Below are positions 10,532 to 28,521 of a stretch of 33,077 nt of DNA, piece by piece; position 1 is the first letter of the stretch, and every line of letters begins with the position of its first letter. The stretch covers positions 1-33,077 of the forward strand of contig JBKKCN010000450.1 in assembly GCA_046712525.1 (NCBI GenBank). Reading direction: 5' to 3'. Below the pieces are notes generated by a model, which saw nothing but the letters and a program-made list of their open reading frames with translations, searched no databases and was not told the DNA's origin. The position numbers and the translations under genes were made by a program. This DNA comes from Candidatus Rokuibacteriota bacterium. GTDB lineage: Bacteria; Methylomirabilota; Methylomirabilia; Rokubacteriales; CSP1-6.

Positions 10532-10533
10532 GC

Positions 10534-11939: not shown

Positions 11940-11951
11940 GGACCTTTCCCT

Positions 11952-12374
11952 TCACTTGATCCCGTTTGCAGCTTGGACCTCGCGGATGTATCGCGTGATG
12001 GCGGTGACCTCATCTGGTCGCACTTCGGGCTGCGGCGGCATGTCGCCCGCCCGCCAGTGATGAGCCCGGACGCCGCGCTGGACGGCGAGACTGAACGCGA
12101 CGTCGGCGTGATGGGCGGGGCGGTAGATCGGGTGGACAAGCGGCGGCCCGGCGCCGCCGCCTCCTCCGTGCGGGCCGTGGCAGTGTGCGCAACGGCGGTC
12201 ATAGGCCTCGCGACCGGACTGCGCAACCGAAGAGAGGGCGGGAACGGCGACTGGCATGTCGGCAGGCACGCCAGGTCCGCGGCCATCCCACAGCCCCCAG
12301 CCGGCATAGCCCACTATCGTGAAAACGGTAAAGAGGGAGGCTGGAATCATCCATGCCTTCGAACGCCTACTCAC
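11952..12374 (-). CDS. membrane-anchored monoheme c-type cytochrome
   Basis: 140-aa track ORF with an N-terminal TM helix (MIPASLFTVFTIVGYAGWGLW) and one heme motif CAHCH. A distal Met candidate sits in HWRAGDMPP. Confidence 0.75.
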   Translation of the reverse strand: MSRRSKAWMIPASLFTVFTIVGYAGWGLWDGRGPGVPADMPVAVPALSSVAQSGREAYDRRCAHCHGPHGGGGGAGPPLVHPIYRPAHHADVAFSLAVQRGVRAHHWRAGDMPPQPEVRPDEVTAITRYIREVQAANGIK

Positions 12375-13026
12375 TATCCGCCTTCACGGCATCCCGGGGC
12401 GTGCGCGCAAGCTCGACGTACGACGCCGCCAGGTACATTCCAAGAAGCTTGCGGCGGTCTTCGTGCGAAAGCGTGCCCGGCCATTCGTCACGTCCCCATC
12501 GGTCTGCGACGTGGGCGCGCACCGCCGGCCACGATGTGAGCCGGCGGCGGTCGGCCCACGTCGTCCAGGCCCACAGCGCGCGTTTCATGGCCCGGCGATC
12601 AAGCAGGTCGGGACGCCGATTGCGAATCCACGGGGGTAGCCCTTGGAGGAAATCTACGCCGAAACGTCTGCCGTTCCTTCCCATGAATCGCAACAGGAAA
12701 TCTGAGAGCAGCGTTGCGTCCGCCGCCGGCAGCAGGGCCGCCACAGCAACAGGGCCTCGCCGCGGCATGCTGGCGCAGACCAAGCCACCGCTGTCTCCGA
12801 TCCAGAGCATGCCGAGCGCGGCGGCCCCCCCCGGGGGCGACGTCCGTACGCCGAAGTCGAACAGCGGCTCTATCCGCTCGGTGGCCAGGCGCCGGGCGGC
12901 GGCGGCGCCGAGAGCGTCCGGAAGATCGATCGGCGCGTGAGGGCGAAAGATCGCCCCGTCGCTGGCTGTCGGTACCGGCCGCCCGAACGCCGCGACAATG
13001 TGACGAAAGCGAGACTCCAGGCTCAT
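12367..13026 (-). CDS. hypothetical protein, no signal peptide (219 aa)
   Basis: Track ORF, Trp/Arg-rich, with no motif I recognise. The case for it being coding rests on its length, its strand and its ATGA coupling with the upstream small ORF. Confidence 0.5.
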   Translation of the reverse strand: MSLESRFRHIVAAFGRPVPTASDGAIFRPHAPIDLPDALGAAAARRLATERIEPLFDFGVRTSPPGGAAALGMLWIGDSGGLVCASMPRRGPVAVAALLPAADATLLSDFLLRFMGRNGRRFGVDFLQGLPPWIRNRRPDLLDRRAMKRALWAWTTWADRRRLTSWPAVRAHVADRWGRDEWPGTLSHEDRRKLLGMYLAASYVELARTPRDAVKADSE

Positions 13027-13164: not shown

Positions 13165-13518
13165 TCAGCCGCGGGGAGGAGCGCGTGGGGCGTGCGGCCG
13201 AACGGACAGCGGGGCAACGGCGATCACGATAGGCGGCGCATCCGGCGTCCCACAATGCATCACGACCGTCGTATCCGGGATGGACGGCGTCACTGCGGCA
13301 GATATACGGTCGGGAAACGGTAGGCGCTCGGCGCCGGACTTGATGCTGACAGGCTCGACGTCGCAGGGGTCTGTCTGGGCGCCAGCATCAGCCGGGTGCG
13401 CCTCGACGCCGACGCACGACCCGAGCGCAACCGCGAGCAGGCTCAGGCCGACACACAGCAGACTCCCATGTCCGCTGAGGACCCGAAGGGGAAACCAGCC
13501 CGCCCGTTCAAAACCCAA
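13165..13518 (-). CDS. putative lipoprotein (117 aa); may continue into ORF 13023..13217 across a frame break
   Basis: Track ORF with a lipobox-like signal SLLCVGLSLLAVALGSC. The overlapping ORF 13023..13217 ends in an ATGA overlap with the next gene. The two frames would join if the C4 run (13211..13214) lost one nt. Confidence 0.4.
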   Translation of the reverse strand: MGFERAGWFPLRVLSGHGSLLCVGLSLLAVALGSCVGVEAHPADAGAQTDPCDVEPVSIKSGAERLPFPDRISAAVTPSIPDTTVVMHCGTPDAPPIVIAVAPLSVRPHAPRAPPRG

Positions 13519-14281
13519 ACGAGAAACCTGTCGTCAGGAAGAACGTGGCCCGATCGCTGGGGCCCACGAACTCGGTGCCAACGCCGACATCGAACACGAG
13601 ACGGCGGGTCAACTGATGGCGAAAGCCTGCTTCCACCCCGACCACGTTCGACTCGCCCCTACGAGTGGCTTGCTCGATGAAGATGTCACCGATGAGCGTG
13701 GTGCGCGTGTACTGTGGAGCGCCGATGGGATAGCTGGCTCCAAGAACGAACTGATAGCGTCCGTCGCGCTCGCCGCGGTCAGTGCCCGTCAGGAATTCGT
13801 AGGCCGCGTTGAAGTGGAGCGACAGCCGATCGAAAGACTTGGTGACCAGCCCCTTCACCTCGACGTCGACCCCCGCTGAATCGACGCCGGTCGGGACATT
13901 GAGGGTCAGCTTGACGCCAAAGGCCGGCACCGTCAGCGTCTCCTGATTGAAATTGTAGAGGCCGCTCACCTGCAGGTCACCGGACTTTGTCTGGTCCTCT
14001 AACTCGTGCGGCGCCGTGGAGAGCGTGGTTCCGATACCGAGCTGCAGGTTTGGCAAGGCGCCGTAGAGAATCTCGACGGGGAACGTTCCCCGGTCGCTGC
14101 CACGTCGCTGTAGCGTGAATCCGCCGCCCGCCTCGAGAGTCCATTCGCCCGCCGCGATCGGATAGGGGTCCTCCAGGCGAAGGGGACGATTCTCGTCGAG
14201 GTTCTTGTGGTCGATGGCGGCGGCCGGGAGGACGGAACCGGCCAGAAGCGCAAGCACCACGGCGGTGGCTCTCACGGACAT
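13508..14281 (-). CDS. outer-membrane beta-barrel protein (possibly 'transporter'/MetA-pathway-like family)
   Basis: Track ORF trimmed to MSVRATAVVLALLAGSVLPAAA (ATG 14281), which is preceded by GAGGTG. It has alternating hydrophobic beta-strand patterns and a C-terminal ...TTGFSFGF ending in Phe (OMP beta-signal). Confidence 0.7.
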   Translation of the reverse strand: MSVRATAVVLALLAGSVLPAAAIDHKNLDENRPLRLEDPYPIAAGEWTLEAGGGFTLQRRGSDRGTFPVEILYGALPNLQLGIGTTLSTAPHELEDQTKSGDLQVSGLYNFNQETLTVPAFGVKLTLNVPTGVDSAGVDVEVKGLVTKSFDRLSLHFNAAYEFLTGTDRGERDGRYQFVLGASYPIGAPQYTRTTLIGDIFIEQATRRGESNVVGVEAGFRHQLTRRLVFDVGVGTEFVGPSDRATFFLTTGFSFGF

Positions 14282-14289
14282 GACACACC

Positions 14290-15951
14290 TCAATGCTTGT
14301 GCTCGTCAGGCGGTTTGGCTGGATCGCCCGGCGGCTGGCTGCGCGGAGACGGCCGGCCGTCCAACACATCCTTTGCCGACGGCGGTCGCGGTCCCATGTT
14401 CATCATGCCGGCGGCCATGCCCTGTCCCATGCCACCTTGGCCGCCCGACCCGTGGGCCATCGGCATTGCGTGATAGCTCACGTAGAGATCCTCAGCGCCG
14501 TGGTTGCGGTGCAGATAGATCGGCAGGATTCGGAGCACTGCCGCGCGCTTTGCTTCCACGGTCGGATAGAGATCGGGCCGGCTCAGGACGTCGTCGATGT
14601 TGTCATGCGCCATGTGGAGGTTGTCGAAGATGGCCGCCGCCTCCGGGAAGCGCTTCGTGAACTCCGGTGCGCCCTCCGGGAGCATCGGCATGAACTGCCA
14701 CTCGATGGGCGGCCGCCGGAGATAACCGTGATAGTGCTCGATGATCTTCGCCATCAGCTCGCGCTGACGTACGGCCGGGCCCATGAGCTGGACGTCGTAC
14801 GTCGCCGCTTGCAGCCAGTGGTAGGCCCAGATCTGCGTGTTGAACGTGCGGAACGTGTTGCGGAACGCCTTGGACTCGGGGAAGCTCCAGAGCTTGCCAT
14901 GATGGTCGAGCCGGTGCGAGGTGATGGCCTCGGGCTTCTCCAGGTAGTTGGCGAGGAGCTTCCGGTACACCGCCTCCTTGTCCGGGACCTTGTCGGCGGC
15001 GAACAGATCGTAGAGGCTGCGGTGGAAGGTGTGGCCCCAGTTGAACGCCCGGTGCGCTTCCCAGACCATGCGCGTGAAGCGGGGCGCCACCTGCTCTTCA
15101 TCCGGAGGCACCGACGGTGAGCTGAAGATGAAGTCGAGGATCTCGAGCCGCGCCGTCTCGACGCGCTGCAGGTCCTGCGTCCTGAGCAGCGTTTCGGCAA
15201 GATGCGCGTGCCCGAAGTCGATGCCGTTGAATTCGCGGTAAAGCTGAGGCAGCTCCCGCGGGATCGCCCAGTTCCAGCGGCCGCGTGGCTGCCAGCGATG
15301 ATCGCGCGTGACCCACTGGCTCGTCCGGACTTCGGGAAGGACGGTCACCTGCTGCGAAGCGCTGCCCGCCGCGTGTTGCTGGGCGACGTCATGGGCGCCC
15401 GTCGCGGGACCGCGCGGCTGCATTTCCGGGTGCTCGGCGAGGACGTGCGCTCCCGTGTGGCCGGACTGGGTGTGCTGGTAGGCAATGACGGCCCAGCGAT
15501 CTTCCACCGGGAGCTGATCCTTGAACGCCGGCATCACCGAGCCGCGCGCCAGGAACGGCTCGACGACCGCACCGCCCTCGCTGACCCGCCAGAACCAGTA
15601 CGCGTCGGTCATGCCCGCCACCATCCGCTTGTCCGTGAAGTCCGGCGGCTTCAGACGCATCCCCGTTGCGGCCGGTACGTGGCCGTCACCGCTGTCGCCG
15701 TGACAGGCGACACATTTCTCCGCGTAGATCTGCTTCCCGCGCGCGGTCATCCGTGTGTCGGTCCAGAGGCCGGGCGGCGGCTTGACGCCGACGTACTGGG
15801 CTGGCACTGGGATCGATCCATGCTCATGGTGGTCGCTGCCTTGTCGGGGGGTCTGGTGTTGAGCGGCAGCGCCGCGCGAGACAGAAGTCACCTCCGATGC
15901 GATTCCGCCGAGGATGAGGATCGCGAGCGCAATCCGAAGACGCGACTTCAT
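14290..15951 (-). CDS. secreted monoheme cytochrome c fused to a ~400-aa His-rich domain of unknown function and a Met/Gly-rich tail
   Basis: 553-aa track ORF with a signal peptide MKSRLRIALAILILGGIASEV and the heme motif CVACHGDSGDGH. Its cytochrome domain is paralogous to domain 1 of 16989..18242 (shared ...DAYWFWRVSEGG...VEDRWAVIAYQHT). It continues with FGHAHLAETLL, FNWGHTFH, WAYHWLQ, FDNLHMAHDNIDD and a tail HAMPMAHGSGGQGGMGQGMAAGMMNMG. Confidence 0.8.
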   Translation of the reverse strand: MKSRLRIALAILILGGIASEVTSVSRGAAAQHQTPRQGSDHHEHGSIPVPAQYVGVKPPPGLWTDTRMTARGKQIYAEKCVACHGDSGDGHVPAATGMRLKPPDFTDKRMVAGMTDAYWFWRVSEGGAVVEPFLARGSVMPAFKDQLPVEDRWAVIAYQHTQSGHTGAHVLAEHPEMQPRGPATGAHDVAQQHAAGSASQQVTVLPEVRTSQWVTRDHRWQPRGRWNWAIPRELPQLYREFNGIDFGHAHLAETLLRTQDLQRVETARLEILDFIFSSPSVPPDEEQVAPRFTRMVWEAHRAFNWGHTFHRSLYDLFAADKVPDKEAVYRKLLANYLEKPEAITSHRLDHHGKLWSFPESKAFRNTFRTFNTQIWAYHWLQAATYDVQLMGPAVRQRELMAKIIEHYHGYLRRPPIEWQFMPMLPEGAPEFTKRFPEAAAIFDNLHMAHDNIDDVLSRPDLYPTVEAKRAAVLRILPIYLHRNHGAEDLYVSYHAMPMAHGSGGQGGMGQGMAAGMMNMGPRPPSAKDVLDGRPSPRSQPPGDPAKPPDEHKH

Positions 15952-16088: not shown

Positions 16089-16613
16089 TTAGTGGCCTTT
16101 ATGCTGTCCCGCAGCACCACCCGCCGGCGGCTTCAGCACTGTCAAGAACGCGACGAGGTCGATCAGCTCCTGAACGTTCAAGGAGTCATTGAAAGACGGC
16201 ATCTTGGAGGTGCCGTCGGTGGCTTGGTAGCCCTTGCCCTTCTCGATCACGGCATTGGGGTTGATGATCGCCTCTACGAAGTACTGCGCCTCGTGCAACG
16301 GCCCCATCGTCGACAGTTCCGGTCCGACCTTGCCCTTGTCGGACGGCGCCGGGAACTTCTCTCCCTTCACTTCGTGGCAGCTGTAGCACTCCAGCTTTGC
16401 GAAGACCTGCCTGCCCTTGGCGGCGTCACCTTTTGGCCAGGTGAGCTTCCAGCCCTCGGGCGTCCCGTGGTCGCCGTGCGGCTGAGGCCGCGCCGCGGGT
16501 GCTTGAGCGGGACGGCCGGGCTTGGCCGGCTGCTGCCCCGTGGCAGCGGCGACTGACGAGGCAAGCAACACGCCGGCGAGCGCGAGCGCCCGCCGGCGAA
16601 AGCCCGGCGTCAT
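16089..16613 (-). CDS. periplasmic monoheme c-type cytochrome
   Basis: 174-aa track ORF with a signal peptide MTPGFRRRALALAGVLLASSVAAA and the heme motif CYSCHEV. A distal Met candidate sits in GTSKMPSF. Confidence 0.8.
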   Translation of the reverse strand: MTPGFRRRALALAGVLLASSVAAATGQQPAKPGRPAQAPAARPQPHGDHGTPEGWKLTWPKGDAAKGRQVFAKLECYSCHEVKGEKFPAPSDKGKVGPELSTMGPLHEAQYFVEAIINPNAVIEKGKGYQATDGTSKMPSFNDSLNVQELIDLVAFLTVLKPPAGGAAGQHKGH

Positions 16614-16960
16614 CGTTCCATCACGACCTTCACCAGGTCGGCCACTTCCTTGTCGCCCTCGTGCTTAGTGGCGACGCTGACGATCCATCCCGGCTTCAGA
16701 TCGGTCAGCGCCACGGTCTGCTCCACGAAGCCCGTCTTGCCCGGCTCGGTGGACCGAGTGAACCGGACGACCTTGGCGCCCGGCTTGAGGTGGACGACGA
16801 CCTGACGTGTCTTTCCCTTGGCCGTGGCGTCGATCGTCACCGTCTGCGCCGCCGGGTCCACTGCCTTCACCGTCCCTGAGATCGGTGCTTCATCGGCGAC
16901 GGCGATGCCGCTCACGACGGTCGCCGCCAGGATCATGATCATTGTCATCGCACGAATCAC
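16610..16960 (-). CDS. small periplasmic beta-rich protein (116 aa), unknown function
   Basis: Track ORF 16610..17110, trimmed to GTG 16960 (V)IRAMTMIMILAATVVSGIAVA, which is preceded by GGAGGA at 6 nt. Its stop overlaps the next ATG (ATGA). Confidence 0.6.
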   Translation of the reverse strand: MIRAMTMIMILAATVVSGIAVADEAPISGTVKAVDPAAQTVTIDATAKGKTRQVVVHLKPGAKVVRFTRSTEPGKTGFVEQTVALTDLKPGWIVSVATKHEGDKEVADLVKVVMER

Positions 16961-16988
16961 GTTGAATCCTCCGTTTCTCAGAATCCCT

Positions 16989-18242
16989 CTATCGACCAGT
17001 CTCTGTCGTCCGCGGCCCGTTGCTCGACAGCGACAGCACGTAGAAAACAAGGTCCCATGTCTGGTCCGGCTCAAGCGAGTCGGCATAGGAGGGCATCGGC
17101 GTGCCAGCAAAACCCGTGACTAACGTCCGGTAGACGTCCTCCGGCCGATCGCCATTCTTGAACCGCCGGGGGTTCCTGAGGTCCGGGGCGGCAATCGGCA
17201 GCTCTCGGCTATCCTTCAGGGTCGGCGCTGAAGGCCCATCGCCCTTCCCCGTCGCGCCGTGGCAAGCCAGGCACTCGGCGTCGGCGTAGAGTTGCTTGCC
17301 CCGGGCGATTCGCTCGTCCGTCAGTTGGGGCCGGGGCGGAATCTCGACGACCTTCACCGGGCCCCGCTCCCAGAACTCTTTGTTCAGGCTCTTGACGTAC
17401 TCGAGGAGCTCCAGGCGCTGCTCTTCAGGCATGTGCCGAAAGCTCGGCATGATGCGGTAGCCGCGTAAGCCGATCGTGAGCGGGCCTCCGGTCGCCCGCA
17501 CTCCTTCCGTCAGCGTCCGGAAGAGGTCGGCGGTCGTCGGAAGCTGACCCGAGGGCGTCGACCGGAACTTGAAGTCCTTGGTCGTGAGGTCGCGCGGCTG
17601 TGGAGATCGGCGCGGCGACAGCGTCGCGCCCACGGAGCCATCGCCCTTGCCCGCCGCTCCGTGACAGGCGACGCACGCCATGGCGAAGATGTCGTGCCCC
17701 ACCGCGACGCTTTGCGGATGCTCCCAGGGGACATGCGGGCCGTCGTGCCCGGAGAATGTGTGCTGGTAGGCCATGACGGCCCACCGGTCTTCGACCGACA
17801 GCGAGTTCTTCCAGGGGGGCATCGCCGAACCCTTGGACTTGAAGGGCTCCGTCTGCCCGCCCTCGCTGATGCGCCAGAACCAGTAGTTGTCCCGCATCTC
17901 GGCGACACCGGCCTTGTCGCGGAAGTCCGACGGCTTCAGAGGCAGCGCCACGCCCGCCGGCCCTTTGCCGTCGCCGGTATCACCGTGACAGACGGCGCAA
18001 CTGGTGGTGTAGATCTCCTTACCGCGCGCGATCATCTTTGCGTCGGTCCAGACGCTGGCCGGCACGTGCGCGTCGGCATAGGGCAGCGGCGCCGGGACGT
18101 GCGCATGTCCGCCCTTGTCCTCCTCGTGGGGCTCGCCGTTGCCGGTAGGATCGGCTTCGATGACTGGCGGGTTGCCAACCCAGAACGACACCGTCAGCAT
18201 GACGGCCGTGATACCGAGGATCGACCAGTGCCTGGCTCTCAT
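16989..18242 (-). CDS. triheme c-type cytochrome
   Basis: 417-aa track ORF with an N-terminal signal/anchor (ILGITAVMLTVSFWV) and three heme motifs: CAVCH, CVACH and CLACH. Confidence 0.85.
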   Translation of the reverse strand: MRARHWSILGITAVMLTVSFWVGNPPVIEADPTGNGEPHEEDKGGHAHVPAPLPYADAHVPASVWTDAKMIARGKEIYTTSCAVCHGDTGDGKGPAGVALPLKPSDFRDKAGVAEMRDNYWFWRISEGGQTEPFKSKGSAMPPWKNSLSVEDRWAVMAYQHTFSGHDGPHVPWEHPQSVAVGHDIFAMACVACHGAAGKGDGSVGATLSPRRSPQPRDLTTKDFKFRSTPSGQLPTTADLFRTLTEGVRATGGPLTIGLRGYRIMPSFRHMPEEQRLELLEYVKSLNKEFWERGPVKVVEIPPRPQLTDERIARGKQLYADAECLACHGATGKGDGPSAPTLKDSRELPIAAPDLRNPRRFKNGDRPEDVYRTLVTGFAGTPMPSYADSLEPDQTWDLVFYVLSLSSNGPRTTETGR

Positions 18243-18254
18243 CCCGTTCTCTCC

Positions 18255-19694
18255 TCAGAAGTCCCAGTCAATGCCGACGATGACCTGATTGCGGTAGCTC
18301 CGCAGCGCGTTGTCCTCGTGAAACTTCCTGAGATTCACACTGTCCCGGACGAAGAAGGCGATGTTCTGCCACGGGTAGTACCGAACCTGGGCGGTGAACA
18401 CCGTGCCGTCGAGCTTCTCGTCCTTCAGGCCGCCCGCCCAGAGCTGGTCGAAGCGGCTGGAGACCAGCACCTTCTCGTGCACGAGGTAGTCGGCCTGCAG
18501 CGTCAGGCCCATGGCCGTGCGGTCGAACTCGCCGCGCAGGTCGCCCGGCAACCCGTAGATGCGGTCCCAGATGAGCGCGCCGTACACGTCGAGACCTTTC
18601 CAGCGTGCGTTCGCCGCGATTCCGTAACGTAGGCGGTCGAGGCGTTTGTCCCCGGCCTCCTCATGGTCCTCAGGGTTGGGGCCGCGCACGACGCCGAACC
18701 CCCAGTTGACCAGTGCCGAGACGTTGAACGTCAGCTCCCTGCGGTCGAGGATGTCGTAGCGCAGCATTGCGTACGTATTGAACCCCTCGTTCTCGCGGAG
18801 GAATCCGACCTGGGCAAGGATGACGTCGTTGAACATCGCGTGGAAGTCCGCACCGGGCGTCCCCGTCGTGTTGTACATGACCTGGTCGGTGACGAGCTGC
18901 GGTTCATGCTCTCGCCGATTCTTGAACAAGCCGAAGAACTTGGAGGCGAACGCATAGGGGACGATGGGGAGGCGATGGACCTCGGACTTGTCCTCGCCGG
19001 GCTCCTTCTCGAATTCGAGCTCGGTGTCCAGGATCAGCTGACGATTTGTGGCGTACGAGAAGTTCGTGCTCGGATCGACCTTCCCGGCCATGAGCATGGG
19101 GCCGTGCATGTAGTTTCCGCCGTGCCGGCCGACCATCGTCTGCCCGCCCATCTCCATGGTCGGAGCGCCGACGAGACCGAAGAGCCAGCCCAGATTGGCC
19201 ATGAAGAAGGCCTCTTTGCCGAGACCGAACTTGTGGCCTCGGTTGTAGAACCCGCGGTCGCGATCGAACTCGGTCGCGTTCGGCTCGTACTCGAACTCCA
19301 CGTAGAAGCTGAAGTTGGGCGTGATCGCTCGCGAGACGAAGAACTCGACCTCGTGCGGCGGCTCGAACTTCACCTCGGTCTCCCGCGGAGACTCGCTGTA
19401 TTCGAAGAATCCGCCGACGATACGGAGGGCAAGGCTGTCGATCGCCGTCTTTGCAGGCCCGTCTTCCTTGAGGCTGCCGACGAGGCCGTCCGGCCGGGAG
19501 GAGCCGGGGATCTGAAAGCCCATCATGTGAAACTGTTCGCCGAAGCGGTTCAGGCGAGGCGGCCGGGTGTGGCAAGCGTTGCATTGCATGTCGTATTGCC
19601 GGGCAAACGCAGGAATCGCATGCGAAGGACTGACCTGCACGTACCCGATCAGGACTCCGACAACGGCGATGCCGAAAAGAACGCGTAGGACCAT
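18255..19694 (-). CDS. fused monoheme cytochrome c - outer-membrane beta-barrel (Cyc2-like porin-cytochrome)
   Basis: 479-aa track ORF. A signal peptide MVLRVLFGIAVVGVLIGYVQVSPSHA is followed immediately by IPAFARQYDMQCNACHTRPPRLNRFGEQF (single CxxCH). The rest is ~430 aa of amphipathic beta-strand pattern ending ...VIVGIDWDF (terminal Phe). GAGGGAGAGGG lies upstream of the ATG. Confidence 0.7.
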   Translation of the reverse strand: MVLRVLFGIAVVGVLIGYVQVSPSHAIPAFARQYDMQCNACHTRPPRLNRFGEQFHMMGFQIPGSSRPDGLVGSLKEDGPAKTAIDSLALRIVGGFFEYSESPRETEVKFEPPHEVEFFVSRAITPNFSFYVEFEYEPNATEFDRDRGFYNRGHKFGLGKEAFFMANLGWLFGLVGAPTMEMGGQTMVGRHGGNYMHGPMLMAGKVDPSTNFSYATNRQLILDTELEFEKEPGEDKSEVHRLPIVPYAFASKFFGLFKNRREHEPQLVTDQVMYNTTGTPGADFHAMFNDVILAQVGFLRENEGFNTYAMLRYDILDRRELTFNVSALVNWGFGVVRGPNPEDHEEAGDKRLDRLRYGIAANARWKGLDVYGALIWDRIYGLPGDLRGEFDRTAMGLTLQADYLVHEKVLVSSRFDQLWAGGLKDEKLDGTVFTAQVRYYPWQNIAFFVRDSVNLRKFHEDNALRSYRNQVIVGIDWDF

Positions 19695-19769
19695 GCCCTC
19701 TCCCTCTCGTTGGCGACATAGACCGCTGCCTCGGACCGAAGGAAACGAGACCGGAAGGAGCGGGTCGGC

Positions 19770-20144
19770 TCAGATCAGGAAGGAGGCGTGCAACAAGAAC
19801 AGTGGGGCACCGGTATGGTCCCGGCTCGATCGAGCGGCGGCGGCCAGCGTGGCCATCGGGGTGGAGCACGGCACAAGCGACATGGGCTGCGCCGCGACCG
19901 CAATGGTGGCGGCCGGAGCCGGCACCGTCGGCGCTGTGGGGGCGGTCGTCGCATCGCACGATGCGACGTGCGAGGCTTCAGGACCGCTGCCTGACGGAGC
20001 ATGCGATTCGGTCGACGTGGTAAAGGGACTATGACCCGAGAACGGCAGCGGAACGATATGTCCGAGGAGACCCATGAGCGCGAGCACGAACACCATCGAG
20101 CGCAGCGGACCAAGGGGCATGAAGGATGTCGCTCTCGCGCTCAT
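19770..20144 (-). CDS. small membrane-anchored His/Cys protein (124 aa), paralog A
   Basis: Track ORF trimmed to MSARATS (ATG 20144), the point where similarity to paralog B begins. Shared blocks are LRSM, GHIVPLPFS.H.PF, TESH.PS, ASHVASCDATT, AAQP.SLVPC..PMA and PLFLLHASFLI (C-terminus). Confidence 0.6.
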   Translation of the reverse strand: MSARATSFMPLGPLRSMVFVLALMGLLGHIVPLPFSGHSPFTTSTESHAPSGSGPEASHVASCDATTAPTAPTVPAPAATIAVAAQPMSLVPCSTPMATLAAAARSSRDHTGAPLFLLHASFLI

Positions 20145-20150
20145 GCGGTG

Positions 20151-20180
20151 ACGATACACGCCGTAAATCGCCATTGTCAA
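20151..20180 (-). promoter_or_regulatory. sigma-70-like promoter candidate (TTGACA-18-TATCGT) 6 nt upstream of ATG 20144
   Basis: The minus strand reads TTGACAatggcgatttacggcgtgTATCGTcaccgcATG. There is no SD, and the geometry would give a leaderless mRNA. Confidence 0.3.
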
Positions 20181-20246
20181 TAAGACGTCGGGATTGCTGC
20201 GACCTCGCATACCTCGTAGCGGCCCGCGCACGCCATGAGCACCAAC

Positions 20247-21044
20247 TCACAGGACCCGCGACGTGTACATCCTCCACGCCCGGATGGGACCGGGACGGGT
20301 GGCGTACACGCGCGACGCCCAGAAGCCGCCGCGCGTCCTCCACATGCCGCCGCGGGCGCGCTGGAACAGCATGACGCTCGGCTCGGAGGGATCGTTGGGG
20401 TCCCACATCGTGAACTCGATGCCCTCGGGCGTGTCGCGGTACGCGTAGGCGATCGTAGTGTGGTTCAGCTCCGGCTTCGGCCAGTTCGAGATCAGCAGCT
20501 GCACGAGGCGGCCCTCGCGAATCTCGTGCGCGATCTCGCTCGCGACCTGTTCCTGATGACCGTCGGGCAGCGGCGCCCCTACCCGCCAGTTGGTCCAGTG
20601 GATGAACGACCAGAAGCGCGCGGTCATCCCGCCCAGCCCCACCTTGACGGCCTTCTCCTCGCCTGCCGTGAACTCGCGCAAGGAGCCGTAGCCGGGGATG
20701 ACGACGCGCTGCTCGGCCGGCAGCGCCGGATCGTACGGGCGGCGGGCGGCGACCTCCTCCACCCGCTTGACGTACTCGTCGAAGGTGAGGCGCGGCGCGA
20801 GGGGGTCGAAGCGCGCGAACTGGTGGAACTGCCGCACGGCGCGCGCGAGCACGAAGCAATAGTTGGCGTAGTCGGCATTCGGCGTTCGCACACGGATCTG
20901 ATTCGGGAACGTAAACGTGTCCGTGCTGAACGAGAAGTCGGTGACGGCGGCGGCCGTGTCGAGGACGTCGGGGGACGGGAGCAGGGGAGCGGTGGCGCAC
21001 GCCACGGTCAGCAGCGCGACGCCGACAAGGATCAGACCCTTCAC
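20247..21044 (-). CDS. lipoprotein of unknown function with a Cys...His...Asp arrangement (possible papain/transglutaminase-like hydrolase)
   Basis: 265-aa track ORF with a GTG start and a lipobox MKGLILVGVALLTVAC. Candidate triad contexts are ANYCFVLARAV, ELNHTTIAYAY and TMWDPNDP. Confidence 0.65.
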   Translation of the reverse strand: MKGLILVGVALLTVACATAPLLPSPDVLDTAAAVTDFSFSTDTFTFPNQIRVRTPNADYANYCFVLARAVRQFHQFARFDPLAPRLTFDEYVKRVEEVAARRPYDPALPAEQRVVIPGYGSLREFTAGEEKAVKVGLGGMTARFWSFIHWTNWRVGAPLPDGHQEQVASEIAHEIREGRLVQLLISNWPKPELNHTTIAYAYRDTPEGIEFTMWDPNDPSEPSVMLFQRARGGMWRTRGGFWASRVYATRPGPIRAWRMYTSRVL

Positions 21045-21280: not shown

Positions 21281-21758
21281 CCCTCTCCCTCTCGTTGGCG
21301 ACATAGGCTGCGGCCTCGGAGCGAACGGAACGTGACTGAGAAGAGGGGGTCGAATCAGATCAGGAAGGACGCGTGCAGCAAGAACAGCGGGACACCGGTC
21401 TGGTCCCGTATCGATCGAACAGCGAGGGCCAGGGCCGCCATCGGGCGGGCACATGGCACAAGTGATATGGGCTGCGCCGCGAGCGCGGTGGTGACGCCGG
21501 GGAGCGTGAGGCTCGCTGTGCGGGACGTTGTCGCATCACACGATGCGACGTGGGAGGCTGCGGCGCCCCCGTCCGACGGCCCGTGCGATTCGGTCAATGT
21601 GACAAAGGGAGTATGAACGGAGAACGGCAGCGGGACGATATGGCCGAAGAAAACCAGGATGGTGAGCGCCAACAGCATCGAGCGCAGGAGACCTCCACGC
21701 ACGCAGGATGCAGATGTGGCGCTCATGCGGCCGACACTACACGCCGTACATCTGTCAA
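21281..21758. repeat. copy B of the diverged ~480-bp direct repeat (partner 19696..20180)
   Basis: See copy A. The 26-nt left end is identical, while the coding part has diverged (~60% aa identity by eye). Confidence 0.8.
21355..21726 (-). CDS. small membrane-anchored His/Cys protein (123 aa), paralog B
   Basis: Track ORF trimmed to MSATSAS (ATG 21726). Conserved blocks are as in paralog A. It starts 28 nt after the ATPase stop. Confidence 0.6.
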   Translation of the reverse strand: MSATSASCVRGGLLRSMLLALTILVFFGHIVPLPFSVHTPFVTLTESHGPSDGGAAASHVASCDATTSRTASLTLPGVTTALAAQPISLVPCARPMAALALAVRSIRDQTGVPLFLLHASFLI

Positions 21759-24295
21759 CGTGAAGCGCCACGCTCTGACCGCGTCCTCTCGGACTCCCGT
21801 GGCTCCTCGCCGGCGCCGCGTGATCGACGGACCGCGGTGAGGCCGAGCAACAGGAGCGCGGGCAGCGCGCCGGCCATGGCCAGCGCCCAATCCGCGCGGT
21901 GCAACGGCTCGAGGTGAAGGACGCGCGCGAGCGGCGGCGTCTGCACGAGGACGATCGCGGAGGCGATGGTCGCCGCTGACACGAACCAGGCCGCGCGCGT
22001 GCGGAGCCGGCTCAGCGCCGCGGTCAGGCAGCCGCTCGCGATGGCGAGCGTCGCCAGCGCCGCCGCCCGGCCGTGCTCCACCCCGCCCGGCTCGCTCGCG
22101 CTCCGTACGTACGCCAGGACCACGGTCACGGTGATGATCCCACCGATGAGCGCGATGAGGAGCCAGTCGCGCCCGCGAAACAGGATCGCCCGCTGCGGCG
22201 CCGCCACGCGCTGGAGCGGGCCCGCCGGCAGCTCCTGGAACACGAGTAATGCCGAGGGATGGATGATCAGCTCCACCCACACGATGTGCACCGGGAGGTA
22301 AAGCAACGGGTAGCCGAGGAGCGGAATCGCGAGCGCGGAGACGACGAACGGAGCATGGATCATCAAGAGGTACTGGAAGCTCGTCCGGAGGTTCGCGAAG
22401 AGCTGGCGCCCTTCGCCGATGGCCCGGACGATCGTGCGGAAGTTGTCGTCGAGAAGCACGATCGCCGCCACCTCGCGGGCGCTCCGCGTGCCGCGCTCGC
22501 CCATGGCGATCCCGACGTCGGCCGCCTGGAGCGCCGGCACGTCGTTCACCCCGTCGCCCGTCACCGCCACGATCTCGCCGGCCGCCTGGAGTCCTCGCAC
22601 GAGCGTCAGCTTCTGGGACGGCGTGGCCCGGGCGACGACGTCGACGCTCCTGAGCCGCTGCGTCTCGCCGCGTGCCGCCAGCTGTTCCATCTCGTCGCCC
22701 GTCACGACGCGCGGCCCCTGCCCGCCCAGGCCGATCGCTCGGGCCACCGCGCGCGCCGTCAAGGGATGGTCTCCCGTCACCATGATGGCGTGAATCCCGG
22801 CCCCGCGGCACGCGCGGATTGCTTCGCTCACGCCCTCGCGCACCGGATCCCCGAACGCGAGCAGCCCGGCCCACCGAAAGCCCGCCGCGGGCTCGCCTCC
22901 TGTGCCGTCTCCGGTCTCGGTGGGCCGCCAGGCGCACGCGATGACCTTGTGCCCCTCCTCGGCGAGGGCGGCGATGTCCGACAGCGCCTGGGAACGTTCG
23001 CTCTCGCTCGCATCGCACATGCCGAGGATCGTCTCCGCCGCGCCCTTGGTGACGGCGATGACCGCGCCGAGCTTGTCGCGAACGATCGCGGTCTCCCGCT
23101 TGCGGCCCTCCGTGAACGGGAACGTGGCCAGACGCGCGAGGCCGTCCAGGTCGATGTCCATCGTGGCGGCTTCAGCAATGACGGCGAGGTCGAGCGGGTC
23201 GCCGCTCTCGGCGCGGGAGGCAAACGTGGTGAGACGAAGCAGGTCGGCGTCGTCGACACCGCGCACGGGCCGGAGATGCGTGAGGCGAAGCCGGCCTTCG
23301 GTGATCGTGCCGGTCTTGTCGGAGCAGACCGTCGTGACGCGCCCGATGTTCTCCACGGACACCGCTCGCCGCACCAGCGCCTGGCGCCTTGCGAGCCGAA
23401 AGACCCCGACGCCGAGGAAGAACGTGAAGACAACAGGGAACTCTTCCGGCAGCGCGGCGACGGCGAGCGTCACCGCGCTCACCAGAGCGTCGAGCCACCC
23501 GTAGCCCTGACGGAGGCGGACCGCGGCCAGGATCAGGCAAAGAACCGCGGCAACGGCCAGAAGCAGTCCGACGAGGTGCTTGATGGCGGTCTGGAGCGGC
23601 GTGAGCGCGCGCTGTCCTCGCACGGCCGACCGGACGATCTCGCCGTAGAGGGTCTCGCCTCCTGTGAAGACGACGCGCACGAGCGCCTCACCTGTCAGCA
23701 GGCGCGTGCCCGCGAACCCCCAGTGCAGCGTCTCGACCAGGGGTTCGTCTCCCTGGCCGACAGGCTCCTGCAGGGCGCGCTTCGGAGCCGGGTATGCCTC
23801 GCCCGTCAACGTCGACTCGTCGGCCTGGAGCTCGGTACCGGCGACGACGAGGCCGTCGGCCGGAAAGGGCTCGCCCGACCCCACGCGCGCAAGATCCCCC
23901 GGTACGAGCTCCAGTACGTTCACCTCGACGCGGCGGCCGTCACGCACGACCACTGCCCGCTCGGCGAGGCGGGCCCTGAGCCCCTCGGCAGAGGCCTGAC
24001 TCCGCCAGTGCAGGAAGGCGTCCATGCCCACCAGCGGCACGAGGGCGACGAGCAGGATCACAGCCTCGCCGAACTCCCCGACCACGGTGTAGAGCACGCT
24101 CGTGCCCCCCAGGAACCAGAGCATCGGATCCTTGGCGGTGTCGCGAGCGAGCTCTCGCCAGCGGGCGGGTGGCGTCTCGACGATCGTGTTGGCCCCGTAC
24201 CGCTGCCGCCGCTCACTCGCCTCGGTCGTGGTGAGCCCGCGCTCCGACCCGAGCAAGTCGCGTAGCCGTTCGAGCGGGACGGCCCGTCGAGTCAC
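21755..24295 (-). CDS. cation-transporting P-type ATPase (HAD-IC; non-heavy-metal, atypical transport-site motifs)
   Basis: 846-aa track ORF with a GTG start. Motifs present: TGEA, CSDKTGTIT, VTGDGVNDVPALQAADVGIAMG. TM4 reads ALPEEFP (not PEGLP and not CPC) and TM6 reads VWVELIIHPS. Confidence 0.9.
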   Translation of the reverse strand: MTRRAVPLERLRDLLGSERGLTTTEASERRQRYGANTIVETPPARWRELARDTAKDPMLWFLGGTSVLYTVVGEFGEAVILLVALVPLVGMDAFLHWRSQASAEGLRARLAERAVVVRDGRRVEVNVLELVPGDLARVGSGEPFPADGLVVAGTELQADESTLTGEAYPAPKRALQEPVGQGDEPLVETLHWGFAGTRLLTGEALVRVVFTGGETLYGEIVRSAVRGQRALTPLQTAIKHLVGLLLAVAAVLCLILAAVRLRQGYGWLDALVSAVTLAVAALPEEFPVVFTFFLGVGVFRLARRQALVRRAVSVENIGRVTTVCSDKTGTITEGRLRLTHLRPVRGVDDADLLRLTTFASRAESGDPLDLAVIAEAATMDIDLDGLARLATFPFTEGRKRETAIVRDKLGAVIAVTKGAAETILGMCDASESERSQALSDIAALAEEGHKVIACAWRPTETGDGTGGEPAAGFRWAGLLAFGDPVREGVSEAIRACRGAGIHAIMVTGDHPLTARAVARAIGLGGQGPRVVTGDEMEQLAARGETQRLRSVDVVARATPSQKLTLVRGLQAAGEIVAVTGDGVNDVPALQAADVGIAMGERGTRSAREVAAIVLLDDNFRTIVRAIGEGRQLFANLRTSFQYLLMIHAPFVVSALAIPLLGYPLLYLPVHIVWVELIIHPSALLVFQELPAGPLQRVAAPQRAILFRGRDWLLIALIGGIITVTVVLAYVRSASEPGGVEHGRAAALATLAIASGCLTAALSRLRTRAAWFVSAATIASAIVLVQTPPLARVLHLEPLHRADWALAMAGALPALLLLGLTAVRRSRGAGEEPRESERTRSERGASR

Positions 24296-24374
24296 TGTTC
24301 GGCGATGTGGCGAGAAAAGAACATGGCGTCAGACAGATCGGCCGGGCCGGTCGACCTGGCGGACCATCGTCGCG

Positions 24375-25274
24375 TCAGCGCACGACGAGCACGGGCACCG
24401 GCGAGTGGTTCAAGGCGCCCTCCGCCACGCTCCCAAGGAGCGCGCGCTCGACGCCGCCGACGGCGCGCGCGCCGACCATCAAGAGGTGGCCCCCGCATTG
24501 GTCGACGACCTCGAGTAACTCGGCCAGCGGTGCGCCGGCCCGCACCTCCATCCGGACGTTCCACCCGGCGCGCCTGAGCCGGGCGGCGGCCCGTTCCACC
24601 CCGCGTCTCGCGCGGCGCATCCGCTCCGCGTTCAACGCCGCGAGCCCATGGCGGAGGGTCGCGCTCACGGAAGGTGGCAGGAGCGCGGCGGTGGGAATCG
24701 CCACCGGCTCGACCACGCCCACCACCGTGACCCGTGCTCCGCGGTCGGGCTTGAAGCGCGCCGCGAGCTCCGCCGCCCGCCGGGCGTTCGGGGAGCCGTC
24801 GACGCCGATCACGATCCGCCGAATCTCTCTCGGGCGGCGCCGCACGACGAGCACGGCACTGGTGGCGCGCCGTACCACGCCGCGGGACACGCTCCCCATG
24901 AGCAAACGCCGGAACCCGCCGTGGCCTCTCCAGCCAAGCACGATGACGTCCGCAGAGAACCGCTTGGCCTCGCGGAGAATCCCGTCCACCGGAGGCTCGC
25001 TGACGGTGACCACTTCGGCGTCGGGCCACCGTCGCGCGAATTCCCGGCGGGCGCTCGCGGCGAGGCGGTCGAAGCTCCGCACCAACGCGACCCGCACGTA
25101 CTCCGGTTTGCCCCGAAGCCAACTCGGCGCCGACGCCACTGCACCGCGCCCGCGCGTGCCGCGAGGCCACGGGAATGCGAGCGCGGTCATCAATGCTGCC
25201 TGCGCCGGCGCCGATCCGTCCATCGCAATCAGCACGCGAAAGCCCCGTCGTCTGACCGTTGAGCGTCTCTTCAT
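24375..25274 (-). CDS. universal stress protein, tandem UspA domains
   Basis: 299-aa track ORF with two Usp units: VLIAMDGS...VLGWRGHGGFRRLLMGSVSRGVVRRATSAVLVV and IVIGVDGS...MVGARAVGGVERALLGSVAEGALNHSPVPVLVV. Confidence 0.85.
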   Translation of the reverse strand: MKRRSTVRRRGFRVLIAMDGSAPAQAALMTALAFPWPRGTRGRGAVASAPSWLRGKPEYVRVALVRSFDRLAASARREFARRWPDAEVVTVSEPPVDGILREAKRFSADVIVLGWRGHGGFRRLLMGSVSRGVVRRATSAVLVVRRRPREIRRIVIGVDGSPNARRAAELAARFKPDRGARVTVVGVVEPVAIPTAALLPPSVSATLRHGLAALNAERMRRARRGVERAAARLRRAGWNVRMEVRAGAPLAELLEVVDQCGGHLLMVGARAVGGVERALLGSVAEGALNHSPVPVLVVR

Positions 25275-25486
25275 CGTCTCAAGCGCCCCCTCGCCTCATC
25301 TGGTCACCACTGTTGCACCCGACTCCTCGAGAGAGCCCTCAATGTCCCGGTGCGAAGCTGGCGTCCGGATCCAGTCGCACCAGAGAGCGAGCCCGAGCGT
25401 CGTGGCCACGGGCCCCAGGAAGTGTCCAATGGAGCCGAACGCTACCGCTGAGCAGCCACGACCGCAACACGCAACAACGAAGGCCC

Positions 25487-28156: not shown

Positions 28157-28167
28157 GGCGGCGAGCC

Positions 28168-28425: not shown

Positions 28426-28470
28426 GATGCCAGCCTAGCACGGAGGAACCACGATCCTGCCGGGGCCGTC

Positions 28471-28493
28471 CGTGGCGCGGACCCCGCGCCACG
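28471..28493. promoter_or_regulatory. perfect 10-bp inverted repeat (cgtggcgcgg-acc-ccgcgccacg) in the divergent intergenic region
   Basis: Read directly. It abuts the AT-rich promoter-like segment of the regulator gene. It could be an operator or a hairpin. Confidence 0.4.
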
Positions 28494-28512
28494 CGAATAT
28501 AGCGAATATAAT
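28493..28512 (+). promoter_or_regulatory. tandem GCGAATATA x2 containing a perfect TATAAT (28507..28512) 9 nt upstream of ATG 28522
   Basis: This is the only AT-rich patch in the intergenic region. There is no SD before the ATG, so the mRNA would be near-leaderless. Confidence 0.4.
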
Positions 28513-28521
28513 GACGGTCCG

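Follow-up and report, generated by a model that had tools for sequence, protein, structure and literature searches.

Cyc2 is the most widely used metagenome marker gene for microbial iron oxidation, and a member of this family that carries an internal segment rich in methionine and histidine raises the question of which metal such a protein handles. A gene of this kind lies in the stretch of DNA analysed here (the window), 33,077 nt of a Candidatus Rokuibacteriota contig (JBKKCN010000450.1, assembly GCA_046712525.1). According to the accessible part of its description, FeGenie flags Rokubacteria as potential iron oxidisers via 'cyc2 or sulfocyanin' homologs (PMC7005843). In the literature on Cyc2 with Rokubacteria, Methylomirabilota or copper resistance, the loop formed by this segment, the partner protein and the copper link were found undescribed, and nothing was found that joins Cyc2 with the term methionine-rich; supplementary files such as the Keffer 2021 figshare Cyc2 tree lay outside this search and may already hold these sequences.

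Membership in the Cyc2 family

The ATG-initiated open reading frame and the N-terminus given in the earlier note are both present on the minus strand (Table 1). The product of 479 aa begins with MVLRVLFGIAVVGVLIGYVQVSPSHA, continues with IPAFARQYDMQCNACHTRPPRLNRFGEQF and ends in GIDWDF, that is, with a terminal Phe. Its first 26 residues, judged by eye, are hydrophobic and end in SHA ahead of IPAF, and they are predicted to be a signal peptide.

Table 1. Features of the Cyc2-like gene and its neighbours (window coordinates)
Feature	Coordinates	Strand	Basis or remark
Small upstream ORF, ~110-150 aa depending on start	19770..20231	-	First module gene; ORF and HMM
Cyc2-family fused monohaem cytochrome-porin	18255..19694	-	ORF, motifs, profile comparisons
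Signal peptide, aa 1-26	19617..19694	-	Predicted cleavage after SHA, read by eye from sequence
Haem domain, aa 27-62 (AIPAFARQY, CNACH, PRL)	19509..19616	-	Most conserved part
Porin barrel, aa ~85-479, 16 strands by hand count, terminal Phe	18258..19442	-	Profile match and hand count
Met/His segment, aa 176-205, two MxM and HGPMxM	19080..19169	-	Clade-specific expansion of the turn between strands 4-5; predicted periplasmic
Periplasmic triheme class I cytochrome c, 417 aa	16989..18242	-	Predicted direct partner
Small secreted OB-like protein, 112 aa	16610..16948	-	Third conserved member; no family
Monohaem cytochrome c, 174 aa	16089..16613	-	Facultative member; 4-nt overlap with the OB-like gene

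In the accessible text of Keffer et al. (2021; PMC8406198), Cyc2 is defined by a signal peptide, one CXXCH motif and a porin barrel, with AXPXFAR[Q/K][T/Y] upstream of the CXXCH and PXL four residues downstream of it. The complete signature, AxPxFARQY-x3-CNACH-x3-PxL, is present in the protein analysed here: the sole CxxCH in its 479 aa (C38-N-A-C41-H42, nt 19569-19583) follows A26-I-P-A-F-A-R-Q-Y34 and the residues DMQ, and the PxL lies four residues past the motif in H42-T-R-P-P46-R-L48. The length also passes the FeGenie filter of at least 365 aa. The CxxCH is invariant in three family alignments, and the dN/dS of the haem domain is 0.035 among 18 orthologs.

A family profile matched 2145 cluster representatives at E ≤ 1e-3, and among the 81 relatives compared, each of at least 365 aa, a single CxxCH occurs in 79 and PxL in 72. 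The protein itself has 487 homologs at E ≤ 0.001, and a metagenome search gave 246 stretches. Searches against Pfam gave 0 families at E ≤ 1, and no Cyc2 model was matched in Pfam or NCBIfam. When the close-family profile was compared by hhalign with an alignment containing 'iron:rusticyanin reductase' proteins, the match had a probability of 99.7% (E 2.7e-25, columns 5-156). This name, that of the Cyc2 enzyme, is the JGI cluster name of one member of the aligned set (P0222), which the family profile matched at E 2.7e-11. The earlier note had called the protein Cyc2-like and had proposed an alignment of the CxxCH context as a check; this context proved homologous to annotated Cyc2, and together with the complete motif set it bears out the assignment. 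A Cyc2-family fused cytochrome-porin is, with high confidence, the identity of the product.

The periodicity previously noted in the remainder of the protein agrees with a porin barrel. C-terminal halves of solved 16-strand porins (OmpU at E 5e-8, OmpK35, OmpF and PhoE; range 5e-8 to 7e-3) match the family profile, and 16 amphipathic blocks with alternating short and long connections, counted by hand, suggest 16 strands. A comparison by hhalign of the family with E. coli OmpF alone was weak (21.6%), with only the last strands aligned. In common with the named members of the family (Acidithiobacillus ferrooxidans Cyc2, Mariprofundus ferrooxydans Cyc2PV-1, Ghiorsea bivora Cyc2TAG1 and Leptospirillum Cyt572), the protein has a single N-terminal CXXCH, AXPXFAR[Q/K][T/Y], PXL and a terminal aromatic residue, and in its predicted signal peptide and predicted porin barrel of ~400 residues it also resembles them. 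However, it is longer than these proteins (479 aa versus ~400-450), and canonical members align with only its first ~150 residues.

The Met/His segment and the modelled complex

The segment reads GAPTMEMGGQTMVGRHGGNYMHGPMLMAGK, as had been quoted, and contains 6 Met, 2 His and 8 Gly in the pattern MxM ... H ... HGPMxM. Eight of the 26 Met and His residues of the mature protein are packed into these 30 positions, a cluster that was equalled in any 30-residue window in 42 of 5000 shuffles of the mature sequence. In a set of 121 proteins of at least 450 aa each (the query plus 120 of the best matches), no substitution occurs at M180, M182, M187, M202, H191 or H197, and M200 is retained in 118 proteins and M196 in 107. 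The earlier note had named a lack of conservation in close homologs as the result that would speak against its reading, and this objection fails because the segment is conserved. By entropy, residues 176-205 rank 18th of 424 thirty-residue windows, all lower ones lying over the haem domain, and the mean pairwise dN/dS among 18 orthologs is 0.094 for the segment versus 0.162 for the mature protein.

The segment corresponds to a 25-residue expansion of a turn, from ~5 to 30 residues, whereas relatives have 1-9 residues at this place, those from the Nitrospirales 5. It had been described as unusual for Cyc2, and the Met/His stretch is indeed absent in every more distant relative examined; the long loop is restricted to proteins that are at least 39-41% identical.

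A model of the Cyc2-like protein in complex with the triheme cytochrome scored 0.84, a value that expresses the model's confidence and is not a measurement, whereas the best of three controls scored 0.00. In a benchmark, 116 of 157 solved complexes and 2 of 215 mismatched pairs attained this score; these counts hold only roughly here because the modelling used purpose-made alignments and included four riding haems. The runs share at least 78% of contacts, and the pLDDT of the triheme partner is at least 81. On the barrel side, the modelled interface is made of the haem domain, every short turn (290, 317-322, 364-367, 404-407 and 442-445), the C-terminus and, from the loop, residues 181-184, 191-193, 195 and 197; the side of the partner includes the CVACH at 190-194, the motif of haem 2, which is touched by the haem domain. 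The model therefore places the Met/His segment on the periplasmic face, within the interface with the triheme cytochrome. Of the loop or plug that had been proposed, an expanded turn on the periplasmic face would stand and an extracellular loop would not. It is probable, from this model, that the two proteins form a complex through a face that includes the Met/His loop.

A conserved gene module and its neighbours

The Cyc2-like gene is part of a conserved four-gene module, together with genes for a mini-protein, the triheme cytochrome and an OB-like protein. The His/Cys-rich mini-protein encoded just upstream contains a single hydrophobic helix that closes with GH(I/V)(C/V)xxP. It also has a stretch rich in His, the pattern H..SC(D/E)A and, at its C-terminus, the invariant sequence PLFLLHAxLLI. 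A search with an HMM of 5 copies detected it immediately 5' of the Cyc2-like gene in 90 of the 92 loci that have 450 nt or more of upstream sequence. It has no family in Pfam, in which the weak matches were DUF2946 (1 of 17 members, E 0.054) and DUF6153 (1 of 17, E 0.025), and a promoter-like site (20180-20151; consensus match only) is found at its open reading frame.

The triheme cytochrome gene starts 12 nt past the stop codon of the Cyc2-like gene, much as in the rus operon cyc2 is directly followed by cyc1, which likewise encodes a class I multihaem cytochrome. The product of the triheme cytochrome gene contains the motifs CAVCH, CVACH and CLACH, and its N-terminal tail, HxHxPxP..YxD, is conserved. 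Among species-representative loci with over 400 nt of downstream sequence, 22 of 23 have a tri- or dihaem homolog 3' of the Cyc2-like gene, and the partner cytochrome is at this position in 56 of 56 metagenome contigs. The loop is found together with a triheme partner; relatives in which the turn has 5 residues pair with a dihaem partner that is without domain 1.

All 37 metagenome loci that continue for at least 1800 nt downstream have the OB-like protein. A CusF assignment was rejected, with CusF_Ec at 21.5 bits versus a cut-off of 27 over no more than the initial 20 positions of the profile. When aligned with E. coli CusF, the protein also showed nothing matching IHH...WPEMTM, which presumably holds the His/Met/Met ligands for Cu(I). 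A PDB sequence search with this protein returned chance-level matches only, and the clusters returned by an Atlas search were all unnamed, with DUF5666 (0.88) as a possible lead. Comparison with ExtJ, from a Geobacter reductive conduit cluster, gave E 0.0016 and 18.8 bits versus a cut-off of 52.5. The monohaem cytochrome c that follows was found in 17 of the 34 metagenome loci whose downstream sequence extends to 2400 nt or more. No RNA data set was listed as containing the stretch. In a run labelled RNA-Seq by guess, short contigs were 88-99% alike over parts of 16213-19717; these were not counted either way for expression. Compared with known Cyc2 loci, the module thus differs in having a triheme partner with a His-rich tail and two further conserved small genes, and in being frequently linked, in relatives, to copper-export genes.

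This linkage was assessed by counting CusA/CusB/OMF-like pumps, CopA-like ATPases (Cu-type P1B) and MerR-type metal regulators. Among 30 metagenome contigs with at least 3 kb upstream, 17 have such a gene near the module (within 3 kb in 14) and 13 have none; the proportion is 14 of 20 when at least 5 kb is available and 7 of 15 among species representatives. By comparison, only one of 21 control Cyc2-type loci outside the clade has a CopA-like gene and one a generic pump, and in the window's genome such metal genes occur on only two contigs in 5.37 Mb. Across the phylum, a CusA-like ortholog (at least 60% identity) is present in 14 of 18 genomes with the Met/His-type gene versus 33 of 233 without it, counts that include the unpublished genomes G076 and G216 and in which related genomes are not independent. 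Cu-type ATPases and CusA-type pumps accompany the module at a rate far above the background and above that of other Cyc2-type loci. Both this linkage and the split between loop and partner types rest on few independent evolutionary events.

The ATPases of relatives score 593-614 bits on TIGR01511 'copper-translocating' (cut-off 397), and one neighbouring pump passes TIGR00914 CusA/CzcA (812 versus a cut-off of 701). Three checked pumps keep all three Met aligned with E. coli CusA M573, M623 and M672, which we take to be the three-Met cluster of the Cu(I)/Ag(I) site. Among NCBIfam models, CueR is the best match of the MerR-type regulators (73 bits versus a cut-off of 147), with ZntR close behind, and these regulators have Cys at the position where Cu(I) sensors presumably have Ser, so that they may sense copper or another metal. 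No copper genes were found within the window's own 33 kb, where the neighbours are two P2-type ATPases, stress proteins, HtrA proteases and an ECF sigma factor; the CopA-CusA-OMF cluster of this genome is on another contig.

Copper as a candidate substrate

Other copper and electron-transfer systems offer points of comparison. At the motif level only, the short MxM and H..MxM elements of the loop are Cus-like, E. coli CusF having MTM and CusB MDM, with methionines that we take to be metal ligands, and CusA-type pumps of the Cus system neighbour the module in relatives. In CueO, the textbook example, a Met-rich insert next to the electron-accepting centre directs an oxidase to Cu(I). The earlier note had likened the segment to the Cu(I)-binding Met motifs of CopB/PcoB. 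Membership in that family was rejected (there is no sequence match to CopB/PcoB, the Pfam search was empty as reported above, and the Met/His stretch is internal instead of N-terminal), whereas the suggestion of copper gained circumstantial support from the gene neighbourhoods of relatives.

A possible functional analogue is nevertheless PcoA/PcoB (CopA/CopB), in which a multicopper cuprous oxidase of the periplasm, bearing Met-rich sites for Cu(I), works with an outer-membrane barrel. In the accessible text of He et al. (2017; PMC5566968), this oxidase and barrel are listed among copper-resistance genes. There is no homology between the two systems; here the redox centre is a haem c instead of copper, the oxidase and barrel would be one polypeptide, and electrons would go to cytochromes instead of straight to O2. 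The arrangement also recalls MtrAB, MtoAB and PioAB, in which an outer-membrane barrel and a periplasmic c-type cytochrome carry electrons across the envelope. There, a barrel of 26 strands encloses a decahaem protein that is a separate polypeptide, whereas here a predicted 16-strand barrel bears its own haem and the partner is predicted to dock from the periplasm. A conduit of that type was rejected, the barrel protein having one haem and the partner only three class I haem domains.

Because a Met/His loop is conserved and copper-export genes are frequent neighbours, this Cyc2 clade may handle copper instead of, or alongside, iron. The best reading is a haem-based Cu(I) oxidase conduit, to which we assign a rough probability of 0.4, a figure that refers to its weakest layer, copper as the working metal. 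Here we infer that copper is bound, that Cu(I) is oxidised and in which direction electrons flow, and take the periplasmic position of the loop and the docking from the complex model. The Cyc2-like protein, in which a short N-terminal domain bearing a single c-type haem is joined to a putative 16-strand porin, would form the outward end of a small conduit for electrons. A metal ion in its reduced state would meet the haem via the barrel or at the barrel mouth and give up one electron, which would pass to haem 2 of the triheme cytochrome c docked on the periplasmic face of the barrel, and from there via soluble cytochromes to the terminal oxidases of the cell. The Met/His/Gly loop at the interface of haem and partner would be a soft-metal site of the Cus type that holds Cu(I) beside the haem, such that Cu(I) would be oxidised to the less toxic Cu(II) in a copper-stress response, with Cu(II) possibly released through the pore, and iron oxidation would not be the main task of the clade. 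A more elaborate proposal, in which a Cus-like loop of an outer-membrane haem cuprous oxidase catches Cu(I) at the periplasmic mouth, the haem oxidises it, the triheme cytochrome feeds the respiratory chain, a MerR-type protein serves as sensor and the mini-protein is a fourth part, is more tentative still. No precedent for a haem-c cuprous oxidase was found. Points against copper are the lack of a copper gene in the window, the 13 of 30 well-flanked contigs that show no metal gene, an OB-like protein without CusF ligands, the Cys pattern of the MerR-type regulators, and the multicopper oxidase of the genome. The idea that the cytochrome module replaces a multicopper oxidase is unsupported, since the genome has one Cu-oxidase_3 match.

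The main rival is that the protein is an ordinary Cyc2, an outer-membrane Fe(II) oxidase for respiration or Fe(II) detoxification, with a loop that serves docking or packing and coevolved with the triheme partner, and with nearby metal genes that reflect a metal-stress island or inherited synteny. Fe(II) oxidation is the activity of all tested family members (Keffer et al., 2021, PMC8406198, in its accessible text; FEBS Open Bio 2026; review). In addition, the genome has four haem-copper oxidase genes over cut-off as electron acceptors, the window's locus has no copper gene of its own, and the loop falls in a modelled protein-protein interface and arises together with the partner's extra haem domain, a co-occurrence that docking fits as well as copper does. 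Met-rich surfaces can also be plain docking surfaces or suppliers of haem ligands. Nevertheless, six invariant Met and His in a Gly-rich loop are better explained by ligation than by docking alone, Met is a poor ligand for Fe(II), and an ordinary Cyc2 leaves unaccounted for a copper linkage so far above that of other Cyc2-type loci. The RuBisCO large subunit was not found in the genome, which is 98% complete, so that classic iron lithoautotrophy via the Calvin cycle is not indicated. On balance, an ordinary iron-oxidising role is somewhat unlikely.

It is also conceivable, if improbable, that a Met or His of the loop is the missing sixth ligand of the Cyc2 haem and tunes its redox potential, with no extra metal involved. 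The haem of purified Cyc2 is low-spin with two axial ligands, His and an unidentified His or Met (FEBS Open Bio 2026), AlphaFold 3 models of three family members show the CXXCH His as the only ligand (review), no Met or His outside the CXXCH is invariant across the wider family, and the loop and haem domain share one face in the complex model. A clade-specific ligand is less parsimonious, however, because relatives without the loop must find their ligand elsewhere; one ligand would not need six invariant Met and His, and the copper neighbourhoods would be left unexplained. Reversed flow, in which electrons of periplasmic cytochromes would exit via the Cyc2-like haem to extracellular or pore-bound Cu(II), Fe(III) or humics, is more doubtful again. 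The direction cannot be read from sequence, and other porin-cytochrome families run both ways (He et al., 2017, PMC5566968, in its accessible text). The weak resemblance of the OB-like protein to ExtJ would suit an outward path, but that match is far under its cut-off, and reduction of Cu(II) to Cu(I) would raise toxicity, a poor fit beside export pumps. To our knowledge, no Cyc2 works outward. Finally, the homology of the barrel half to general porins could suggest a plain diffusion porin, with no conduit, in which the haem peptide at the N-terminus is a relic or sensor. This is scarcely credible when the haem domain is the most conserved part of the protein, a cytochrome partner is invariably co-encoded and both haem motifs are juxtaposed in the complex model.

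Whatever the metal, the module is a tractable case for two questions about Cyc2, the identity of its periplasmic partner with the docking site, and the coordination of its haem, as the partner is invariably co-encoded and the modelled interface gives residues to mutate. If the cuprous-oxidase reading is true, the module would be a new type of copper-resistance enzyme, a respiration-coupled cytochrome counterpart of PcoA/PcoB that uses haem instead of copper, and copper could be detoxified without a multicopper oxidase and, in principle, without oxygen, with the pore as a possible exit for Cu(II). Since this clade is common in soil and subsurface metagenomes, Cyc2-based calls would, if it serves copper, over-count iron oxidisers.

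Cyc2 family membership of the cytochrome-porin

The N-terminus quoted in the earlier note is that of the minus-strand Cyc2-like ORF, whose product begins with a stretch resembling a Sec signal peptide (aa 1-26), continues with the mature N-terminus AIPAFARQYDMQCNACHTRPPRL and ends in GIDWDF. Searches of Pfam and NCBIfam with this protein returned no family, even at E<=1. Keffer et al. 2021 (PMC8406198) define a Cyc2 protein by its signal peptide, a single CXXCH closely preceded by AXPXFAR[Q/K][T/Y] and with PXL four residues further on, and a porin of 16 strands; FeGenie adds a length of at least 365 aa. The 479-aa protein has every sequence feature in these definitions. The stored relatives include 81 that reach 365 aa: a single CxxCH occurs in 79 of them (the remaining two being truncated at the N-terminus), the strict motif in 40 and PxL in 72. 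One cluster of these relatives, P0222, bears the JGI name 'iron:rusticyanin reductase', and hhalign aligned the close family to an alignment built around it with a probability of 99.7% (E 2.7e-25). In addition, a family profile matched solved porins of 16 strands (OmpU, 5e-8; OmpK35, OmpF and PhoE) in their C-terminal halves. The published motif, homology to annotated members and porin likeness thus make membership of the Cyc2 family very probable, in support of the fused cytochrome-porin that the earlier note had proposed.

When 1.84 billion cluster representatives were searched with a profile built from 30 close homologs (A1), 2145 matched at E<=1e-3, of which 110 reached 1e-10 and 41 reached 1e-30. 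The distant matches are 390-450 aa long and align over the first ~140-150 positions only, in keeping with a remark by Keffer et al. (PMC8406198) that conservation in Cyc2 extends to the haem domain but not to the porin. The closest named homolog comes from a Candidatus Rokuibacteriota MAG; species-representative genomes encoding 63-85% identical proteins bear for the most part the labels Rokuibacteriota, Methylomirabilota or NC10, and single contigs were assigned to bins of Betaproteobacteria, Binatia, Gemmatimonadales and Nitrospirae. The G+C content of the window is 62-74%.

Features of the window, its genome and related loci
Feature	Coordinates	Strand	Remarks
Small upstream ORF	19770-20231	-	just upstream of Cyc2-like gene; hydrophobic helix and His/Cys-rich stretch
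Promoter-like TTGACA-18-TATCGT	20151-20180	-	10/12, consensus match only; upstream of the small ORF's conserved part
Cyc2-like gene	18255-19694	-	ATG-initiated ORF, 479 aa
Met/His segment	19080-19169		aa 176-205
Triheme cytochrome	16989-18242	-	417 aa, three class I haem domains; start 12 nt 3' of Cyc2-like gene
His-rich tail of triheme partner	18072-18107	-	aa 46-57
OB-like gene	16610-16948	-	
Monohaem cytochrome	16089-16613	-	
553-aa protein	14290-15951	-	one N-terminal class I haem domain, ~390 residues without family
261-aa MetA/Porin_4-like outer-membrane protein	13508-14293	-	overlaps 553-aa protein gene by 4 nt
ECF-type sigma factor gene between two HtrA-type protease genes	8886-11939 and 10022-10576	-	
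265-aa putative lipoprotein	20247-21044	-	LTVAC lipobox by eye
Block upstream of module	21755-30584		two P2-type (Ca/Mg/H-like) ATPases, two universal-stress-protein genes, sigma-54 response regulator
Heavy-metal cluster, window's genome (G000)	C513:38-5951		CopA-like, CusA-like, OMF-like; contig ends after OMF gene
Two-frame triheme gene (L033/L027, genome G098)	~7453-8600		311 aa with two haem motifs first
Short-turn Cyc2-like/dihaem set (L028, G033:C17)	3651-4865, 9315-10652, 10665-11426, 11949-12737		

A constrained Met/His loop within a conserved module

The Met/His-rich segment noticed earlier proved real and highly conserved. Its 30 residues hold 8 of the 26 Met and His of the mature protein, a clustering reached in 42 of 5000 shuffles, and M180, M182, M187, M202, H191 and H197 are kept in all 121 homologs (the query and 120 of its best homology matches, each at least 450 aa). 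By entropy the segment ranks 18th of 424 thirty-residue stretches, with only haem-domain stretches ahead. Its dN/dS is 0.094, whereas the mature protein has 0.162 (dS ~0.85-1.2). The segment is an insertion: in its place, canonical Cyc2-like proteins and proteins that are 29-36% identical have 1-9 residues. It is restricted to the query's clade, comprising 17 species-representative loci, a 68% cluster representative and variants of 39-41% identity that include a Tectomicrobia MAG; 78 of 80 metagenome contigs carry the strict motif. These alignments mark it as a clade-defining, strongly constrained loop.

The cytochrome-porin belongs to a conserved four-to-five-gene module. A homolog of the triheme partner lies 3' of the barrel gene in 56/56 metagenome contigs and in 22 of the 23 species-representative loci with downstream DNA, the single exception being a canonical gammaproteobacterial-type gene. 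A 112-aa secreted OB-like protein is next in all 37 contigs with room, followed by a monohaem cytochrome in 17/34. At the other end, an HMM detects the small upstream ORF in 90 of 92 related loci; its product has an invariant C-terminal end, PLFLLHAxLLI, and no family in Pfam. Val replaces the first Cys of GHIC in the window's copy. A promoter scan of the region returned 3 sites versus 0.7 expected.

Loop-bearing proteins are accompanied by a triheme partner with a conserved HxHxPxP..YxD tail, and short-turn relatives (three complete Nitrospirales loci and one same-phylum locus) by a dihaem partner equivalent to domains 2-3 only; since this split separates two clades, it represents essentially one evolutionary event. 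The His-rich tail, HAHVPAPLPYAD(AH) at the partner's mature N-terminus, occurs in all loop-associated partners inspected except the Tectomicrobia one, and dihaem forms are without it. The two reading frames of the triheme gene in G098 reflect either a frameshift or an assembly error. Locus L028, from a same-class genome, packs two or more short-turn Cyc2-like genes into 7 kb, the second being followed by two dihaem cytochrome genes.

Further genes surround the module. Those for the 553-aa and 261-aa proteins may form a second cytochrome/outer-membrane pair, and a fragment 81% identical to the former follows the module in L035. A fragmented P2-type ATPase likewise lies upstream of the module in L031, and an HtrA homolog downstream of it in L046 and L049. 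The putative lipoprotein has no family, and no counterpart beside the module in the relatives checked.

In the aligned barrel blocks, short invariant connections alternate with long indel-rich ones. Outer-membrane barrels have both termini in the periplasm; by this rule the short connections would be periplasmic turns, and the insert would replace turn 2, which joins strands 4 and 5. A complex of residues 27-479 with the adjacent triheme cytochrome (its His-rich tail cut off beforehand) and four haems was predicted with a score of 0.84 (runs 0.84, 0.85 and 0.83), the best of three controls scoring 0.00. That mark is reached by 116/157 solved complexes and 2/215 mismatched pairs, figures that hold only roughly here because the calibration was made without riding ligands or custom alignments. 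At least 78% of contacts recur between runs, and the partner's pLDDT is at least 81. On the barrel side, the modelled interface comprises the haem domain (28-68), the C-terminus, residues 290, 317-322, 364-367, 404-407 and 442-445 (coinciding exactly with the short connections), and loop residues 181-184, 191-193, 195 and 197. On the partner side it comprises 180-212 and 250-275, or haem domain 2, whose CVACH lies against the barrel's CNACH region. The model supports binding of the triheme partner and agrees with a periplasmic insert at turn 2, suggesting that the loop is probably periplasmic and at the haem/partner interface.

Heavy-metal genes near the module in relatives, and the metal it may handle

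A scan of the relatives' flanks for further conserved genes turned up heavy-metal genes. In one Rokuibacteriota MAG, for example, genes for a CusA/CzcA-type pump, an outer-membrane factor and a CusB/CzcB-type adaptor come first; after them lie a MerR-type regulator gene and the small ORF, then the barrel, triheme and OB genes, and finally a copper-type P1B ATPase gene. Other relatives carry parts of this arrangement. Three neighbouring ATPases score 593-614 bits against TIGR01511 (cut-off 397), and a full-length pump 812 against TIGR00914 (cut-off 701). Methionines aligned with E. coli CusA M573, M623 and M672, which we take to be its Cu(I)/Ag(I)-binding residues, are all retained in the three pumps checked.

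Among 15 species-representative loci with 1 kb or more of upstream DNA, 7 carry heavy-metal genes, as do 29/80 metagenome contigs overall; the latter figure rises to 17/30 where the upstream flank is 3 kb or longer (in 14 of the 17 the genes lie within 3 kb) and to 14/20 where it is 5 kb or longer. As controls, the same queries match truly on only two contigs of the window's 5.37-Mb genome, and 21 Cyc2-type loci outside the clade gave one CopA-like gene and one generic pump (25-30% identity). Across the phylum, the Met/His-type gene is found in 18/251 genomes (two further weak matches are short-turn relatives), and a CusA-like ortholog (at least 60% identity) in 14 of those 18 versus 33/233 others; these counts include the unpublished genomes G076 and G216 and, since related genomes are not independent, all the linkage counts are descriptions rather than tests. 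The CusA-like pump on C513 is 84% identical to that of locus L037.

This neighbourhood tentatively favours a copper-directed function, and several observations count against it. The 33 kb of the window contain no CusA-like, CopA-like or related heavy-metal genes, the genome's CopA-CusA-OMF cluster being on another contig than the module, and 13 of the 30 well-flanked contigs are without such genes. The module's OB protein has no CusF ligands, MerR-type regulators are ambiguous as to metal, and the genome has a multicopper oxidase. In the sources drawn on, Keffer et al. 2021 (PMC8406198) among them, every tested Cyc2 protein is an Fe(II) oxidase. Ordinary Fe(II) oxidation with the loop as a docking surface ranks second, and we consider it rather unlikely. 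The part of the FeGenie paper drawn on mentions only 'cyc2 or sulfocyanin' homologs for Rokubacteria (PMC7005843), and no description of the loop, partner or copper linkage was found in the literature searched.

The loop could instead supply the second ligand of the Cyc2 haem: EPR of one purified Cyc2 demands such a ligand (FEBS Open Bio 2026) and AlphaFold 3 models of Cyc2 proteins show none, according to a review. We regard this role as improbable, and outward electron flow, ranked last of the four, as more improbable still. Ranked first, at a probability of about 0.4, is a copper-directed function, in which the Met/His loop would hold Cu(I) and the haem would oxidise the bound ion.
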